Assembly: GCA_963723415.1 (NCBI GenBank)
Contig: CAVRQB010000005.1
Span: 117,633-181,632, forward strand
Length of the DNA: 64,000 nt
Source: an uncultured beta proteobacterium
GTDB taxonomy: Bacteria; Pseudomonadota; Gammaproteobacteria; Burkholderiales; Gallionellaceae
Direction: 5' to 3'
The translations under genes and the position numbers were made by a program. The notes under the pieces are model-generated. The model ran no database searches and was not told the DNA's origin. It worked only from the letters and a program-made list of their open reading frames with translations. Shown one piece after another: positions 29,017-33,395 of this stretch (position 1 is its first letter; each line of letters opens with the position of its first letter).

Positions 29017-29248
29017 TCACCGACTAATCGGTTTATACCGGATCCGCTTAGGCTTCGCGCCTTCTTCGCCCAAACGCTTGCGCTTGTCCGCTTCGTATTC
29101 CTGATAGTTGCCGTCGAGGAAGTTCCAGTGCCAATCGCCCTCGGCCGCGAAGATGTGGGTGGCGATGCGGTCGAGGAACCAGCGGTCGTGCCAGATCACC
29201 AGCACGCAGCCCGCGAATTCGAGCAGCGCATCTTCCAGCGCGCGCAGC
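29017..29248 (-). pseudogene. ettA 3'-end fragment (copy 4, last roughly 74 codons)
   Basis: It encodes ..LRALEDALLEFAGCVLVIWHDRWFLDRIATHIFAAEGDWHWNFLDGNYQEYEADKRKRLGEEGAKPKRIRYKPISR. It aligns with the C-terminus of the intact ettA (31731..) at roughly 85 percent DNA identity by eye. Confidence 0.85.
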
Positions 29249-29281
29249 AGGGTCACTCCAAAATCGCTAAAGCCATGATTG

Positions 29282-29428
29282 TTACTTGGCAGTCGCGCGG
29301 GACTTGCGTACAACCAATTGCGTGCCGGTTTGTTCCGCCAGTTGACGCGCTTTTTCTGCGGCACGCAGCAAGGCTTGCGGCGCATATTTCAAACTCGAAT
29401 CTTTCAGGTGGGAAACGGGTGCCTTCAT
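29282..29428 (-). CDS. Small ORF (48 aa) downstream of the zeta-like ATPase gene, a possible antitoxin-like partner
   Basis: My hand translation is MKAPVSHLKDSSLKYAPQALLRAAEKARQLAEQTGTQLVVRKSRATAK. It is not in the ORF track because it is under 60 aa. Confidence 0.3.
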   Translation of the reverse strand: MKAPVSHLKDSSLKYAPQALLRAAEKARQLAEQTGTQLVVRKSRATAK

Positions 29429-29475
29429 TTATTTTGCCCTTCCTCTATCAGAACAGCGGGGATGCCGGAATTATC

Positions 29476-29955
29476 TTACAGTTGCCAGCTATCCACCAGT
29501 AGCTTGTAGCGCTCGAAATTTGCGATACCGTGCGCGAAACGGCGGCGGATGACACCTTCGGGAACATTGTGCCCGCCTTGTTTGACGCGGTTGGCTACAC
29601 GCTCTATCGCCATCTCGATATCCGGCAATGACAGGAAAGCCAGCTCCACCGCATAACCGGATGAACGCCAGGCGGGGATCATCTGAGCATAGGTCAATCC
29701 GAAAAGAGTCGTCTCGAATGCAAAACTTTCGCCGCGCTTTGCATGGCCCGCTATCTCTTCAAGCATCAACCTGCCCGCTTTGAAGGCGGCCAAATCGGGT
29801 TCGAAGGGTGATAGTCCGGCAGCGATCAGGTCGGCATTTACGAAGTTGGGGCAATGAGCCTCGTTGGGCAGGAACTCGCGCGCAAACGTGGTTTTCCCGG
29901 CGCCGTTCGGTCCGGCGATGATGACGATGCGTTTGCTTTGTGCTGCTTTGCTCAC
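29476..29955 (-). CDS. Zeta-toxin-family / AAA-type P-loop kinase-like ATPase
   Basis: The GTG start at 29955 gives VSKAAQSKRIVIIAGPNGAGKTT. The longer track ORF N-terminus is a translation of the REP-like repeat. Confidence 0.7.
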   Translation of the reverse strand: MSKAAQSKRIVIIAGPNGAGKTTFAREFLPNEAHCPNFVNADLIAAGLSPFEPDLAAFKAGRLMLEEIAGHAKRGESFAFETTLFGLTYAQMIPAWRSSGYAVELAFLSLPDIEMAIERVANRVKQGGHNVPEGVIRRRFAHGIANFERYKLLVDSWQL

Positions 29956-29956
29956 A

Positions 29957-30000
29957 TCCCCTCTCCCCCGACCCCTCCCCCGCGAGCGTGGGAGGGGAGC
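29957..30000. repeat. REP-like GC-rich hairpin element
   Basis: The sequence is cccctctcccccgacccctcccccgcgagcgtgggaggggag, with stem CCCCTCCC/GGGAGGGG. Confidence 0.8.
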
Positions 30001-30006
30001 CATAAA

Positions 30007-30420: not shown

Positions 30421-30466
30421 CCACCCCTCTCCCCCGACCCCTCCCCCGCAAGCGTGGGAGGGGAGA
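30421..30466. repeat. REP-like GC-rich hairpin element
   Basis: It is near-identical to 29957-30000. Confidence 0.8.
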
Positions 30467-30472
30467 ATTGCT

Positions 30473-30722
30473 TTACCGGCTGATCGGTTTATACAGCATC
30501 CGCACGGCTTCGCGCCTTCCTGATGGAACTACCGGTGAAACAACTGATATGACCACCAGCCATCTGACTAGGTTGTCCAACGACGACAACCTAGTCATTG
30601 GTTATAGCCATCCCGCTACGCAACCACAAAACAGTTGCCAAGTGGTTGCTCATTCACCCAGCCGCTTGCGCTTGTCCGCTTCGTATTCCTGATAGTTGCC
30701 GTCGAAGAACGTCCACCTCGAA
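30473..30722 (-). repeat. ettA 3'-end fragment (copy 2) interrupted by a 133-bp insert (30520-30652)
   Basis: Both halves align to copy 4 and to the intact ettA 3' end. The insert carries two perfect hairpins. Confidence 0.75.
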
Positions 30723-30762
30723 TCGGGCTGTGCGGTTACCATGAGGCGAGCGTCCTGCATTT

Positions 30763-31665
30763 TCATCGGCATTTGTATGCCGAGTAATCCAGAGGCGGGA
30801 CGTAGTTGGTTGATCCGTCGCCGGGACGATTAAGGCTATCCCAGGGAATGTCGTTTATCGAGGTATACATCTGCGATACGGGCAAATGATATTTCATCTT
30901 GAATCGCGCCCAATTCTCGTAGACCTTGCCCCATCTGGCATTCAGTTTCTTGATTCTGTTCTCCTCATCCAGATATTCAAAGTTTGACGCCTGGTTGTGG
31001 TAGGCAAAAGCGCCTTTGGCTACGAGCAACTTGTAGCCGGCCCTGTGTACCCTTATTCCAAAATCGTGGTCGGCGAAATATCCGTAAAATAAAGGGTCCA
31101 GGGTTCCTATCTTGTCGATCAACTCCCTTTTCACAAGAAATGCATCACCGGTCAAATAGTCTTCTTCAAAAGCATCGTCCTTGTTCAGCTCGTAAATCTT
31201 GCTTGCGATGGCGTGGACATCCCCGAGGTTATTTATGCTGCCGGGGAGATCAACACTGTGCTCCGGTTTCATGTTATCCACAAAATTGGATATGCCTCTT
31301 GCGATCCCGCAATCGGGATGTGAATCGGCTACGGCAATCAGGGCCTTCAGGTAATCCGGCGTTACATAGATATCGTTTGAAACAAAAACGATATATTTTC
31401 CTTTGGCATGGGACAGGATGCAATTCAGGCTCCCGCTGTATTCCAGATTCTCAGTGAAGGAGTAAACAACCGTATTTTCATGCCTCCCTTTGACAGACGA
31501 AAACAGATTCTTTATCTCCCCTTTGTCTGGTGAACAATCGTCAACCAGTACCAATTCAAAGTTGCCGTTGCACGACATGAACAGGCTTTCCAGGCAGGCC
31601 ATGGTGACCTCAAGATTGCCGTAGGCGGAAATTCCGATTGAAACCCTCTCATCCAGAGTAATCAT
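30763..31665 (-). CDS. Family 2 glycosyltransferase
   Basis: It has the GT2 signature ELVLVDDCSPD. The cassette is AT-rich and sits directly downstream of ettA. Confidence 0.8.
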   Translation of the reverse strand: MITLDERVSIGISAYGNLEVTMACLESLFMSCNGNFELVLVDDCSPDKGEIKNLFSSVKGRHENTVVYSFTENLEYSGSLNCILSHAKGKYIVFVSNDIYVTPDYLKALIAVADSHPDCGIARGISNFVDNMKPEHSVDLPGSINNLGDVHAIASKIYELNKDDAFEEDYLTGDAFLVKRELIDKIGTLDPLFYGYFADHDFGIRVHRAGYKLLVAKGAFAYHNQASNFEYLDEENRIKKLNARWGKVYENWARFKMKYHLPVSQMYTSINDIPWDSLNRPGDGSTNYVPPLDYSAYKCR

Positions 31666-31730
31666 GTTTCTCCATTGCTGATCAATTCATGCAATGCTGC
31701 GCCGGCTCAATGCCGGGCTGGCAACGCAGA

Positions 31731-33395
31731 TCACCTGCCGATCGGCTTGTACCGGATCCGCTTCGGCTTCGCTCCCTCTTCGCCCAAACGCTTGCGTTTA
31801 TCAGCCTCATACTCCTGGTAGTTGCCGTCGAAGAAGTTCCAGTGAGAATCGCCTTCCGCCGCGAGGATGTGGGTGGCGATGCGGTCGAGGAACCAGCGGT
31901 CGTGCGAGATCACCAGCACGCAGCCGGCGAATTCGAGCAGCGCATCTTCGAGCGCGCGCAGCGTTTCCACATCGAGATCATTGGACGGTTCGTCGAGCAG
32001 CAGCACGTTGCCGCCGGCGATCAGCGTCTGCGCCAGATGTAGGCGGCCGCGTTCGCCGCCGGAAAGCGTGCCGACCACCTTGGCCTGGTCGCCGCCCTTG
32101 AAGTTGAAGCGGCCGATGTAGGCGCGCGCCGGGGTTTCGTATTTACCCACGGTGAGGATGTCGTTGCCGCCGGAGATCGCGTCGAACACGGTCTTGTCGT
32201 TCTGCAGCGAGTCGCGCGCCTGGTCGACGTGCGCGATCTTCACCGTCGTGCCGATCTTCACTTCGCCGCTGTCAGGTTTTTCTTTTCCGGTGATCAGCTT
32301 GAACAATGTGGACTTGCCCGCGCCGTTCGGGCCGATGATGCCGACGATCGCGCCGGGCGGCACCTTGAAGCTGAGGTTATCGATCAGCAGGCGGTCGCCG
32401 TAGGCTTTGGAAACATTGTTGAACTCAATGACCTCGTTGCCGAGCCGCTCGCCGACCGGGATGAAGATCTCCTGCGTCTCGTTGCGCTTCTGGTGTTCCT
32501 GCGAATTGAGCTCCTCGAAGCGGGCGATGCGCGCCTTGGATTTTGCCTGGCGTCCCTTCGGATTCTGCCGCACCCATTCCAGCTCCTGCTTCATCGCCTT
32601 CATGTGCGCGTCGACCTGCTTGTTCTCCTGCTCGAGGCGCGCCTCTTTCTGCTCCAGCCAGCTCGAGTAGTTGCCCTTCCACGGGATGCCGTGGCCGCGG
32701 TCCAGTTCAAGTATCCATTCGGCGGCGTTGTCGAGGAAGTAGCGGTCGTGGGTGACGGCGACCACGGTGCCGGGGAAGCGCACCAGGAATTGTTCCAGCC
32801 ACTCGACCGACTCGGCGTCGAGGTGGTTGGTCGGCTCGTCGAGCAGCAGCATGTCGGGCTTTTCCAATAACAATTTGCACAGCGCGACGCGGCGCTTCTC
32901 GCCGCCGGAAAGATTCTTGATCACCGCGTCCCACGGCGGCAGCCGCAACGCATCGGCGGCGATCTCGAGCTGGTGTTCGGAATCCGAACCCGATGTGGCG
33001 ATGATGGCCTCGAGCCGCGCCTGTTCGGCGGCCAGCACGTCGAAGTCCGCATTCTCTTCCGCGTAGGCGGCATACACCTCGTCGAGTTTCTTCTGCGCCT
33101 GCATCACTTCGCCGAGCGCGGACTCCACTTCCTGGCGCACGGTCTTGGCCGGGTCGAGCTCCGGTTCCTGCGGCAAATATCCGATCGAAATATTCGGCAG
33201 GTGCTGCACCTCGCCGTCGTATTCCTTGTCCACGCCGGCCATGATGCGCAGCACGGTGGATTTGCCCGAACCGTTCAGGCCGAGCAGGCCGATCTTCGCG
33301 CCGGGGAAGAAGCTGAGGGAGATGTCCTTGATGATCTGACGCTTGGGGGGAACGATCTTGCTCACGCGGAGCATTGACATTACGTATTGAGCCAT
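31731..33395 (-). CDS. ettA: Energy-dependent translational throttle ABC-F ATPase EttA
   Basis: The 554-aa ORF is collinear with E. coli EttA (MAQYVMSMLRVSKIVPPKRQIIKDISLSFFPGAKIGLLGLNGSGKST..). It has two ABC cassettes. Confidence 0.9.
   Translation of the reverse strand: MAQYVMSMLRVSKIVPPKRQIIKDISLSFFPGAKIGLLGLNGSGKSTVLRIMAGVDKEYDGEVQHLPNISIGYLPQEPELDPAKTVRQEVESALGEVMQAQKKLDEVYAAYAEENADFDVLAAEQARLEAIIATSGSDSEHQLEIAADALRLPPWDAVIKNLSGGEKRRVALCKLLLEKPDMLLLDEPTNHLDAESVEWLEQFLVRFPGTVVAVTHDRYFLDNAAEWILELDRGHGIPWKGNYSSWLEQKEARLEQENKQVDAHMKAMKQELEWVRQNPKGRQAKSKARIARFEELNSQEHQKRNETQEIFIPVGERLGNEVIEFNNVSKAYGDRLLIDNLSFKVPPGAIVGIIGPNGAGKSTLFKLITGKEKPDSGEVKIGTTVKIAHVDQARDSLQNDKTVFDAISGGNDILTVGKYETPARAYIGRFNFKGGDQAKVVGTLSGGERGRLHLAQTLIAGGNVLLLDEPSNDLDVETLRALEDALLEFAGCVLVISHDRWFLDRIATHILAAEGDSHWNFFDGNYQEYEADKRKRLGEEGAKPKRIRYKPIGR

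Follow-up and report, generated by a model that had tools for sequence, protein, structure and literature searches.

This study bears on how toxin-antitoxin (TA) and defence genes reach chromosomal hotspots that carry no integrase, transposase or other hallmark of a mobile genetic element (MGE). The locus described here lies downstream of ettA, which encodes an ABC-F translation factor, in a 3.27-Mb Gallionella genome (G000; other G and L numbers denote genomes and loci of its relatives). We analysed a 64-kb stretch of this genome (G000:C5:117633-181632), referred to as the window. In the window the 3' end of ettA is present four times, with small cargo modules between the copies, and similar arrays recur behind ettA in other Gallionellaceae. 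A study across 80 species reported that many hotspots contain no MGEs and that the core genes beside them recombine in excess (Oliveira et al. 2017, PMC5635113). The P. aeruginosa core defense hotspots likewise have no obvious mobilising mechanism (Johnson et al. 2023, PMC10250203). The double crossover usually proposed for such loci is traceless and hard to test. The ettA locus keeps a trace of each acquisition.

The 3' end of ettA is repeated downstream of the intact gene

We located the fragments by blastn of ettA against the window and by nhmmer, using a profile made from the last 300 nt of 38 intact ettA genes. The resident ettA is intact, and the ettA of the nearest relative is 97% identical to it at the amino acid level. 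Three extra 3'-end fragments, named F1, F2 and F3, lie downstream on the ettA strand. Both methods agreed on them, which confirms four copies in one orientation, as a first-pass annotation of the window had listed (Table 1).

F3 was detected by blastn at 29027-29248 (nt 1434-1655 of ettA, 90.5% identity over 222 nt, E = 8e-85) and by nhmmer at 29018-29266 (profile positions 51-299, E = 6e-72). F2 was found at 30009-30045 by blastn (84% over 37 nt) and at 30008-30047 by nhmmer (profile positions 260-299, E = 8e-6). F1 is divided by an insert into a left arm (blastn 30653-30715, 81%, E = 6e-11; nhmmer E = 6e-19) and a tail (nhmmer 30474-30521, profile positions 251-299, E = 8e-5). The F1 tail is a degenerate variant, and sequence comparison showed that it is also present in genome G205. 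Every fragment keeps the reading frame and ends in its own stop codon. The identity to the resident tail had been given as 80-85%; this was correct for F2 and for the left arm of F1, and F3 lies above it.

We did not find any further copy of the ettA 3' end in the 3.27-Mb genome; the other matches were weak and belonged to ABC-F paralogues. The fragments are therefore tied to ettA and are not copies of a dispersed repeat, an origin that the first-pass annotation had named as speaking against its proposal.

Cargo of the cassettes in the window

Cassette 1 contains a gene for a family-2 glycosyltransferase (GT2), which starts 65 nt past the ettA stop codon. Its GC content is 46-47%, while that of the genome is 57%. 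The nearest relatives of the protein, at approximately 50% amino acid identity, come from Thiolapillus, Pirellulaceae and Cyanobium. None of their genes adjoins ettA, so we found no source setting for this cargo.

Cassette 2 contains a DUF433 antitoxin-like gene and the beginning of a DUF5615 gene. This module is approximately 88-90% identical at the nucleotide level to the module behind the intact ettA of G142, where DUF5615 is complete (116 aa). Alignment with G142 revealed a single deletion of approximately 420 nt in the window, which took the 3' two-thirds of DUF5615 together with fragment positions ~115-259. This one deletion accounts both for the shortness of F2 and for the truncation of DUF5615 at the fragment boundary. 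F2 is thus the remainder of a formerly longer fragment. The first-pass annotation had described DUF5615 as cut exactly at the boundary; the truncation is real, and its cause is this secondary event.

Cassette 3 contains a zeta-toxin-like gene, annotated at the same length of 159 aa in a conspecific NCBI assembly, and a 48-aa open reading frame (ORF) which has no Pfam match and is possibly the partner of the zeta-like gene. The earlier description of single modules between the fragments was supported by Pfam for GT2, DUF433, the N-terminal remnant of DUF5615 and the zeta-like ATPase.

Table 1. Features of the ettA-DUF1614 interval in the window (F, ettA 3'-end fragment).
Feature	Coordinates	Strand	Basis or remark
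Intact ettA, 554 aa, ABC-F translation factor	31731-33395	minus	ORF; final ~230 nt = tail F0
GT2, 300 aa (cassette 1)	30763-31665	minus	Pfam PF00535, E 4e-18
F1 left arm, ettA fragment	30653-30725	minus	profile positions 180-252 of last 300 nt
Insert splitting F1, tandem dimer of ~60-nt MITE/REP-like element	30522-30652	minus	131 nt
F1 tail, last ~48 nt of ettA with own stop	30473-30521	minus	nhmmer
REP-like hairpin	30424-30465	minus	7 nt past F1 stop
DUF433 antitoxin-like gene, 74 aa (cassette 2)	30125-30349	minus	Pfam PF04255, E 1.4e-25
5' remnant of DUF5615 (PIN-like toxin) gene (cassette 2)	30046-30128	minus	PF18480 profile positions 1-30 only
F2, last ~40 nt of ettA with stop	30007-30047	minus	stop codon 30007-30009
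REP-like hairpin	29958-29999	minus	7 nt past F2 stop
Zeta-toxin-like P-loop kinase, 159 aa, GTG start (cassette 3)	29476-29955	minus	PF06414 + PF13671
48-aa ORF (cassette 3)	29282-29428	minus	kept alongside zeta-like gene in G015, G006
F3, last ~250 nt (~80 codons) of ettA with stop	29017-29266	minus	stop codon 29017-29019
Decayed AT-rich SIR2-like/TPR gene, directly distal to F3	27810-28951	minus	ORFs and composition
phd/vapC pair	26154-26785		window
DUF1614 3'-end direct copies	21833-21992, 25790-25945	plus	blastn 96-98% and 85%
Convergent DUF1614 gene	17378-18121	plus	opposite flank of hotspot

The arrays recur in Gallionellaceae and share modules

We compared the locus in two batches of genomes. 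The first batch consisted of 20 near relatives, followed up to 15 kb downstream of ettA. The second consisted of 20 Gallionellaceae genomes chosen partly for high hit counts, and it is biased in this respect. Extra ettA tails were present in five of the 17 congeneric loci of the unbiased batch (G015, G019, G002, G017 and G006). Over both batches, and not counting the window, 17 of 40 Gallionellaceae loci had them, always on the downstream side of ettA and nowhere else; for L059, which is included in the 17, the match is weak and lies 8 kb past the gene. We did not observe extra tails within 1.5 kb of ettA in 12 genomes from other families of the same order.

All relatives have ettA, and a DUF1614 gene forms the far flank in G015 and G012, while the cargo of the interval differs from genome to genome. 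The distance from ettA to the convergent DUF1614 gene is 3.5 kb in the nearest relative, G015, and 13.6 kb in the window. The region downstream of ettA is thus variable among relatives; the first-pass annotation had named an invariant region as one outcome that would speak against its proposal. Its view of the ettA 3' flank as a recurrent insertion site with variable cargo was upheld by the counts given above.

The same modules were found in different positions of the arrays. In G015 and G006 the intact ettA is immediately followed by the zeta module, whose zeta ORF begins only 9 nt past the ettA stop in G006. The zeta module is in turn followed by an ettA fragment, with a homologous junction, in the window, G015 and G006, and the junction between F3 and zeta is common to the window and G015. 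In G019 and G020 the phd/vapC module comes straight after ettA, and G006 has it between two ettA fragments. In G142 the intact ettA is followed by the DUF433/DUF5615 module, and the fragment there starts near profile position 115. Recurring cargo with the same junction showed 72-90% nucleotide identity between genomes. Homology between shared modules begins at the ribosome-binding site of the cargo and not at a hairpin.

In 14 genomes we determined the size and content of the units between tails. They measured 0.7-1.2 kb and contained PIN toxins with their partners, Phd, DUF4160/DUF2442 pairs, BrnT, DUF433/DUF5615, zeta-like and HTH-M78 genes, MqsA-like genes, an AAA ATPase, a GGDEF protein and GT2. 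The cargo of the cassettes is mostly TA pairs. All of the approximately 25 cargo genes backed by Pfam or homology in these genomes (~25/~25; window 29282-31665, L031-L070) had the orientation of ettA and lay close together.

Distal to the last fragment we detected GmrSD (three genomes), SIR2-STAND and an AbiEii-like AAA_21 ATPase, and defence-type genes beyond the TA cassettes were present in L041, L045, L052, L062 and L065. At the position that the decayed SIR2-like gene occupies beside F3, G091 has an intact SIR2-STAND gene (754 aa), likewise after an ettA fragment. The decayed gene fits this pattern of distal defence genes, and it is likely the oldest unit of the type 'tail plus defence gene' in the window.

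Short-read samples of the same species gave Logan contigs (L095, L097-L100) of 1.2-1.5 kb that end in ettA repeats. Since short-read contigs break in these repeats, such arrays are likely under-reported in fragmented metagenome-assembled genomes.

A model of homology-driven accretion

The architecture, its recurrence, the sharing of modules and junctions, the lack of an integrase and the decay events are read directly from the sequences. To account for them we propose that core genes flank a hotspot here, the ettA-DUF1614 interval, which grew by integrase-free, homology-driven additive accretion and was then subject to decay through deletion and repeat insertion. We consider the chances of this account to be about even.

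In this model the unit would be a piece of cargo, usually a TA pair, bracketed by two stretches of the ettA 3' end. Since every relative has ettA, such a unit could enter behind the intact ettA of any of them with RecA-type recombination of the host only. For a linear molecule this would take a double crossover, in which ettA provides the left arm and the trailing ettA fragment the right arm, whereas a circular one would need a single Campbell-type crossover. By either route ettA would stay intact and be followed by the new cargo, and behind the cargo a displaced ettA tail would lead into the downstream DNA that was there before. Repeated entry would stack the cassettes, with the newest nearest to ettA. 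The arrays were later eroded by deletions, such as the one of ~420 nt that made F2, and by insertion of dispersed repeats, as in F1. Each unit would first have gained its flanking duplication illegitimately, probably in one event. The parts that we infer are the route of recombination, the way in which the DNA entered and the origin of the first flanking duplication.

The order of modules in the window can be reproduced on paper. Insertion of a G142-like DUF433 unit into a G015-like ancestor, through ettA homology on both sides, gives exactly the order observed. In this way F2, its hairpin and the zeta module also come out contiguous.

With regard to DNA entry, G000 has a ComEC-family match and dprA. 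These genes are near-universal and provide weak evidence for competence. The sole ComEC-family (PF03772) match, at G000:C1:195564-196274, has one in-frame TAG within the matched stretch, and the gene of the DNA-uptake channel may be interrupted in this strain.

No integrase, fixed boundary or conserved core at ettA

The first-pass annotation had explained the array by integration of elements that carry a substitute 3' end of ettA, and had noted that no integrase was visible. We therefore looked for the marks of a site-specific element. No PF00589 tyrosine recombinase was present near ettA in 16 Gallionella genomes, all matches being far off; G000 itself encodes 22 tyrosine recombinases, all away from ettA. 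A hidden Markov model (HMM) built from 21 integrase domains of G000 and run against the six-frame ORFs of 41 loci did not reveal any array integrase, and its only match was a Xer-like gene 9.6 kb away in L041. The earlier statement that no integrase is visible therefore holds, for tyrosine recombinases, in and beside all 41 loci. All ORFs of the arrays are TA, defence or other cargo, and no space is left for another enzyme. Thus neither the array nor an element adjacent to it contains an integrase.

The 5' boundaries of the fragments were determined by nhmmer. They fell at profile positions 2, 50, 51, 73, 107, 121, 128, 136, 158, 164, 195, 211, ~231 and 250-269, and were spread almost evenly over the profile. 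There was no common core with one fixed repeat boundary, and some of the short fragments are deletion products. A conserved core should have lower synonymous diversity in the last 45 nt, and we found the opposite. Third-codon-position diversity in 28 full ettA genes was highest in the last 30 codons (0.42-0.47). With synonymous diversity in ettA peaking in the tail, there is no sign of a conserved core.

We also searched for the presumed attachment (att) sequence outside the locus. F3 had no partial tails among 50,697 phage records; its three matches were whole ettA genes, two of them in records of bacterial genomes. In 72,556 plasmid records the matches listed were only ettA genes on chromids or on mis-filed chromosomes. 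A literature search did not return any report of ettA as an att or integration site. An RNA gene as the actual target was not found either: positions 14000-38000 of the window contain no tRNA or tmRNA gene, and Rfam families gave no match. In contrast to these results, the target gene is kept intact through a substitute 3' end, as expected for an integrative element. The part of the first-pass proposal that concerns the substitute end agrees with the data, as ettA is intact (554 aa) and the fragments are often foreign to the tail of their own genome. The part that concerns a site-specific element with a cognate integrase does not: there is no recombinase in the array, the boundaries are scattered, no core is seen and no att sequence occurs elsewhere.

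The same architecture was found at unrelated genes of G000. We compared the genome with itself, searching for closely spaced direct repeats overlapping a long ORF at its 3' end, and recovered ettA, DUF1614 and three other cases. The 3' end of DUF1614 together with ~45 nt downstream is present in three direct copies across 17944-25947, with cargo between them that includes an IS110-family element. The first-pass annotation had pointed to this parallel, and blastn bore it out. The DUF1614 array is a mirror image of the ettA array on the other flank of the same interval; its half contains two IS110-family insertion sequences, which are self-contained elements. At 1.4 kb downstream of lipB its last ~48 codons recur with 90% nucleotide identity, with a Fic/DOC-family gene between the copies (G000:C2:182875-185283). 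In a Methyltransf_28 gene 346 nt are repeated at 95%, 1.4 kb downstream (G000:C3:644447-646920), and in a Diphthami_syn_2-family gene 127 nt are repeated at 85%, 8 kb downstream, with AT-rich cargo between (G000:C4:803326-812182). We regard the process as general, and, as the lipB case is unique to G000 among the genomes searched, ettA as its special, recurrent site.

These results bear on the strongest alternative to accretion by homology, namely that the array is a decayed tandem accretion of site-specific elements at the ettA 3' end. The fragments would then be attL and attR sites, the integrases would be lost or act in trans, as in cis-mobilizable elements (CIMEs) that are mobilised through accretion with an integrative and conjugative element, and deletions would have trimmed the elements down to one or two genes and moved the boundaries of the fragments. 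Direct repeats of a 3' end around foreign cargo, with the gene itself intact, are the classic footprint of an integrase, and strict polarity of the cargo agrees with it. Secondary deletions do shorten fragments, so the scatter of boundaries could be a later effect. A recurrent minimal fragment, ~45-50 nt long, is found in about 10 genomes, and G000 encodes 22 tyrosine recombinases elsewhere. However, several of the 'minimal' fragments are right arms split by a dispersed repeat and of one shared origin, and the putative core is the region of highest synonymous diversity in ettA. No integrase lies in or next to the array at 41 loci, and no ettA-like att site was found elsewhere in G000 or in the literature, while the matches listed from the phage and plasmid collections were whole ettA genes only. 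In addition, the four other unrelated genes with the same architecture would need as many lost integrases. We consider this explanation rather unlikely.

Origin of the tails and sharing of units

We compared the fragments with the intact tails of their own and of other genomes. Fragments were often nearer to the tails of other genomes than to their own (95.7 vs 87.6%, 91.7 vs 82.5% and 86.7 vs 76.9%). This supports the earlier statement that they are not self-duplications. With regard to excess recombination in the flanking gene, synonymous diversity is highest in the tail and fragments match foreign tails, but no sharp breakpoint appeared and the signal for native or imported copies was mixed.

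A second alternative is that each duplication was made on the spot by an illegitimate or replication-based event, without later spread of the cassettes. Such an event could be template switching, repair of staggered breaks, or homology-facilitated illegitimate recombination in which the illegitimate joint lies upstream of the anchor's end. The scattered boundaries, the cargo packed close to the ettA stop and the one-off cases at lipB (only in G000) and at other genes are in line with it, and the foreign GT2 gene, without any ettA-linked kin, needs illegitimate capture. Against this, the same cargo occurs with the same junction in different genomes (72-90% nucleotide identity), fragments are often foreign to the tail of their own genome, and degenerate tail variants are common to several genomes. 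Because degenerate tails are shared, units must propagate or be inherited, and are not created anew each time. We therefore find it improbable that local events account for the arrays without subsequent spread.

Dispersed repeats within the array

Two kinds of short repeat lie between or within the fragments. The first is a hairpin resembling repetitive extragenic palindromic (REP) sequences. Its two copies in the array are 97.6% identical to each other, and approximately 25 BLAST hits across the genome show that it belongs to a dispersed family. The first-pass annotation had placed the same hairpin in front of two fragments; it is indeed present at both, and in the orientation of the genes it follows the stop codons of F1 and F2.

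The second repeat is the insert that splits F1. Its presence was predicted correctly, with a size of 133 bp instead of 131 nt, and we found that it is a tandem dimer of a dispersed element of ~60 nt, which resembles a miniature inverted-repeat transposable element (MITE). The consensus of the element is ATAACCAGCGAC-hairpin-TAGTCGAATGGCTAG(TAGTTNCATCAG), and CATCAG comes after TAGTCGAATGGCTAG. A search with its conserved end motif gave 70 matches in the genome, nearly all of them true copies (for example G000:C4:339742-339830 and C3:133340/133760). Most copies lie inside the other REP hairpin, at GGG^AGAGGG (CCCTCTCCCGC..GCGGG^AGAGGG), often as tandem dimers. The ettA sequence at the insertion point in F1 is GGGTGA^AGAGGG. 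The element has a high preference for its insertion site, and we identified no cognate transposase. Many short copies, conserved ends and a hairpin place the F1 insert and the hairpins, and only these, in a dispersed REP/MITE family. They are unrelated to the ettA signal.

The same ettA position is filled by the ~60-nt element in fragments of at least seven other genomes. Four of these genomes have a diagnostic short left arm, which indicates one origin for those four. We had considered a fixed crossover point, suggested by the recurrent fragment at profile positions ~250-299. This candidate was rejected, as the sequence upstream of the fragment is the dispersed MITE-like element and four of the cases share one origin.

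The repeats invite a third alternative, recombination that depends on hairpins, in which the REP hairpins or the ~60-nt elements would serve a cognate enzyme as sites, in the manner of attC. REP hairpins come after the stop codons of F1, of F2 and of many tails in relatives, at least eight genomes have the MITE-like element at one precise ettA position, and the size, TA content and co-orientation of the cassettes are like those of chromosomal integrons. However, both repeats are dispersed over the genome, mostly away from cassettes, and many cassettes lack them, with no REP at F3 or at the zeta module of G006. The homology of shared modules begins at the ribosome-binding site of the cargo. No integron integrase was found in the loci, and inspection by eye did not reveal RYYYAAC/GTTRRRY core motifs flanking the units or in the hairpins. 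This explanation is very improbable. The remaining one, that the fragments resemble ettA by chance or belong to an unrelated dispersed repeat, draws on the truly dispersed hairpin and insert next to them and can be set aside, given E-values down to 8e-85, the frame and stop kept in each fragment, the lack of copies elsewhere in the genome and homologous fragments at the same locus in 17 other genomes.

Neighbouring reading frames

Between the phd/vapC pair and the decayed SIR2-like gene we noted an ORF of a class I SAM-methyltransferase (26902-27717). Its N-terminal domain is normal, while the C-terminal third is odd and Arg-rich. A 131-aa ORF (26910-27305) overlaps it in another frame, and a frameshift near 27300 looks likely.

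Discussion

Accretion by homology is the account that we prefer, and several results weigh against it. The polarity of the cargo is not predicted by simple homologous recombination; it may point to a directional process or to selection for expression by read-through. Both the strict co-orientation and the choice of ettA remain unexplained by the model. Among 18 congeners and 12 genomes of the same order that were searched, the lipB duplication was present only in G000, so something beyond generic homologous recombination singles out ettA. The GT2 gene is foreign (46% GC, kin in other phyla), and at least its first capture must have involved an illegitimate step, for which the model has no explanation. 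Comparison of intact tails with fragments, to tell native from imported copies, gave different answers in different genomes. When the ettA of the window was compared with those of relatives in 150-nt windows, no clear 3' mosaic breakpoint was seen. All conspecific assemblies recovered by exact-protein look-ups (99.1-100% identity) had an identical array, without any sign of ongoing exchange; the array is fixed in this species and probably not active. Finally, the systematic recombinase search was aimed at tyrosine recombinases only.

The locus resembles the MGE-poor hotspots flanked by core genes (PMC5635113, PMC10250203). A variable set of TA and defence genes lies between the convergent core genes ettA and DUF1614, no integrase, MGE machinery or other MGE hallmark is present at the array, and the content differs between close relatives. 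The models for such hotspots assume scarless replacement by double crossover, whereas here a displaced copy of the 3' end accompanies each acquisition. The ettA hotspot is therefore additive, and the order of events is recorded in it.

In E. coli a single crossover with circular DNA duplicated 109-950 bp of the homologous locus (PMC3240628). The ettA arrays share with this Campbell-type integration an intact gene, inserted DNA and a partial direct duplicate of variable length, obtained with host recombination only. Such integration is known from laboratory plasmids and not as a routine builder of TA and defence arrays across a family.

Another comparison is offered by arrays of integrative and conjugative elements (ICEs). 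ICEs accrete together with integrase-less CIMEs, for example at fda of Streptococcus thermophilus. Tycheposons form additive islands beside tRNA genes (Hackl et al., bioRxiv 10.1101/2020.12.28.424599). In these systems, as at ettA, 3'-end repeats separate stacked cargo, the target stays intact and many units have no integrase of their own. Unlike them, the ettA site has no integrase in 41 genomes, no fixed boundary and no conserved core. Its units are only 0.7-1.2 kb long, and the target codes for a protein and is not reported to serve as an att site. Neither the tRNA target nor the integrase typical of tycheposons is present.

Sedentary chromosomal integrons, such as the Vibrio superintegron, are compact, co-oriented, TA-rich cassette arrays. 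The ettA arrays are similar in that compact and co-oriented mini-cassettes, mostly promoter-proximal and TA-rich, follow a fixed point. They differ in having no IntI, attI or attC. No tyrosine recombinase, and hence no IntI with attI, stands at the head of the array next to ettA. By inspection, without an attC model, no attC was recognised either, and the separators are ettA coding sequence, that is, pseudo-copies of a housekeeping 3' end with variable length.

If an ettA-specific integrase were found instead, ettA would be a new protein-gene attachment site. If the ettA 3' ends do act as homology arms, selfish TA cassettes would have a simple and testable route through host recombination only, and short pseudo-fragments of 3' ends could be used in annotation as markers of additive hotspots. 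The order of events, the boundaries of modules and their later decay can be read from the ettA arrays and compared across the family.

In summary, these results allow a tentative suggestion, in which our confidence is clearly less than even. The TA and defence mini-cassettes of Gallionellaceae may constitute an integrase-free mobile system, in which a copy of the 3' end of ettA, a housekeeping gene conserved universally, serves as a portable homology arm. Such cassettes would be inserted behind the ettA of any relative by host RecA alone, co-oriented and possibly co-transcribed, and the stacked pseudo-tails would record the order in which they were acquired.

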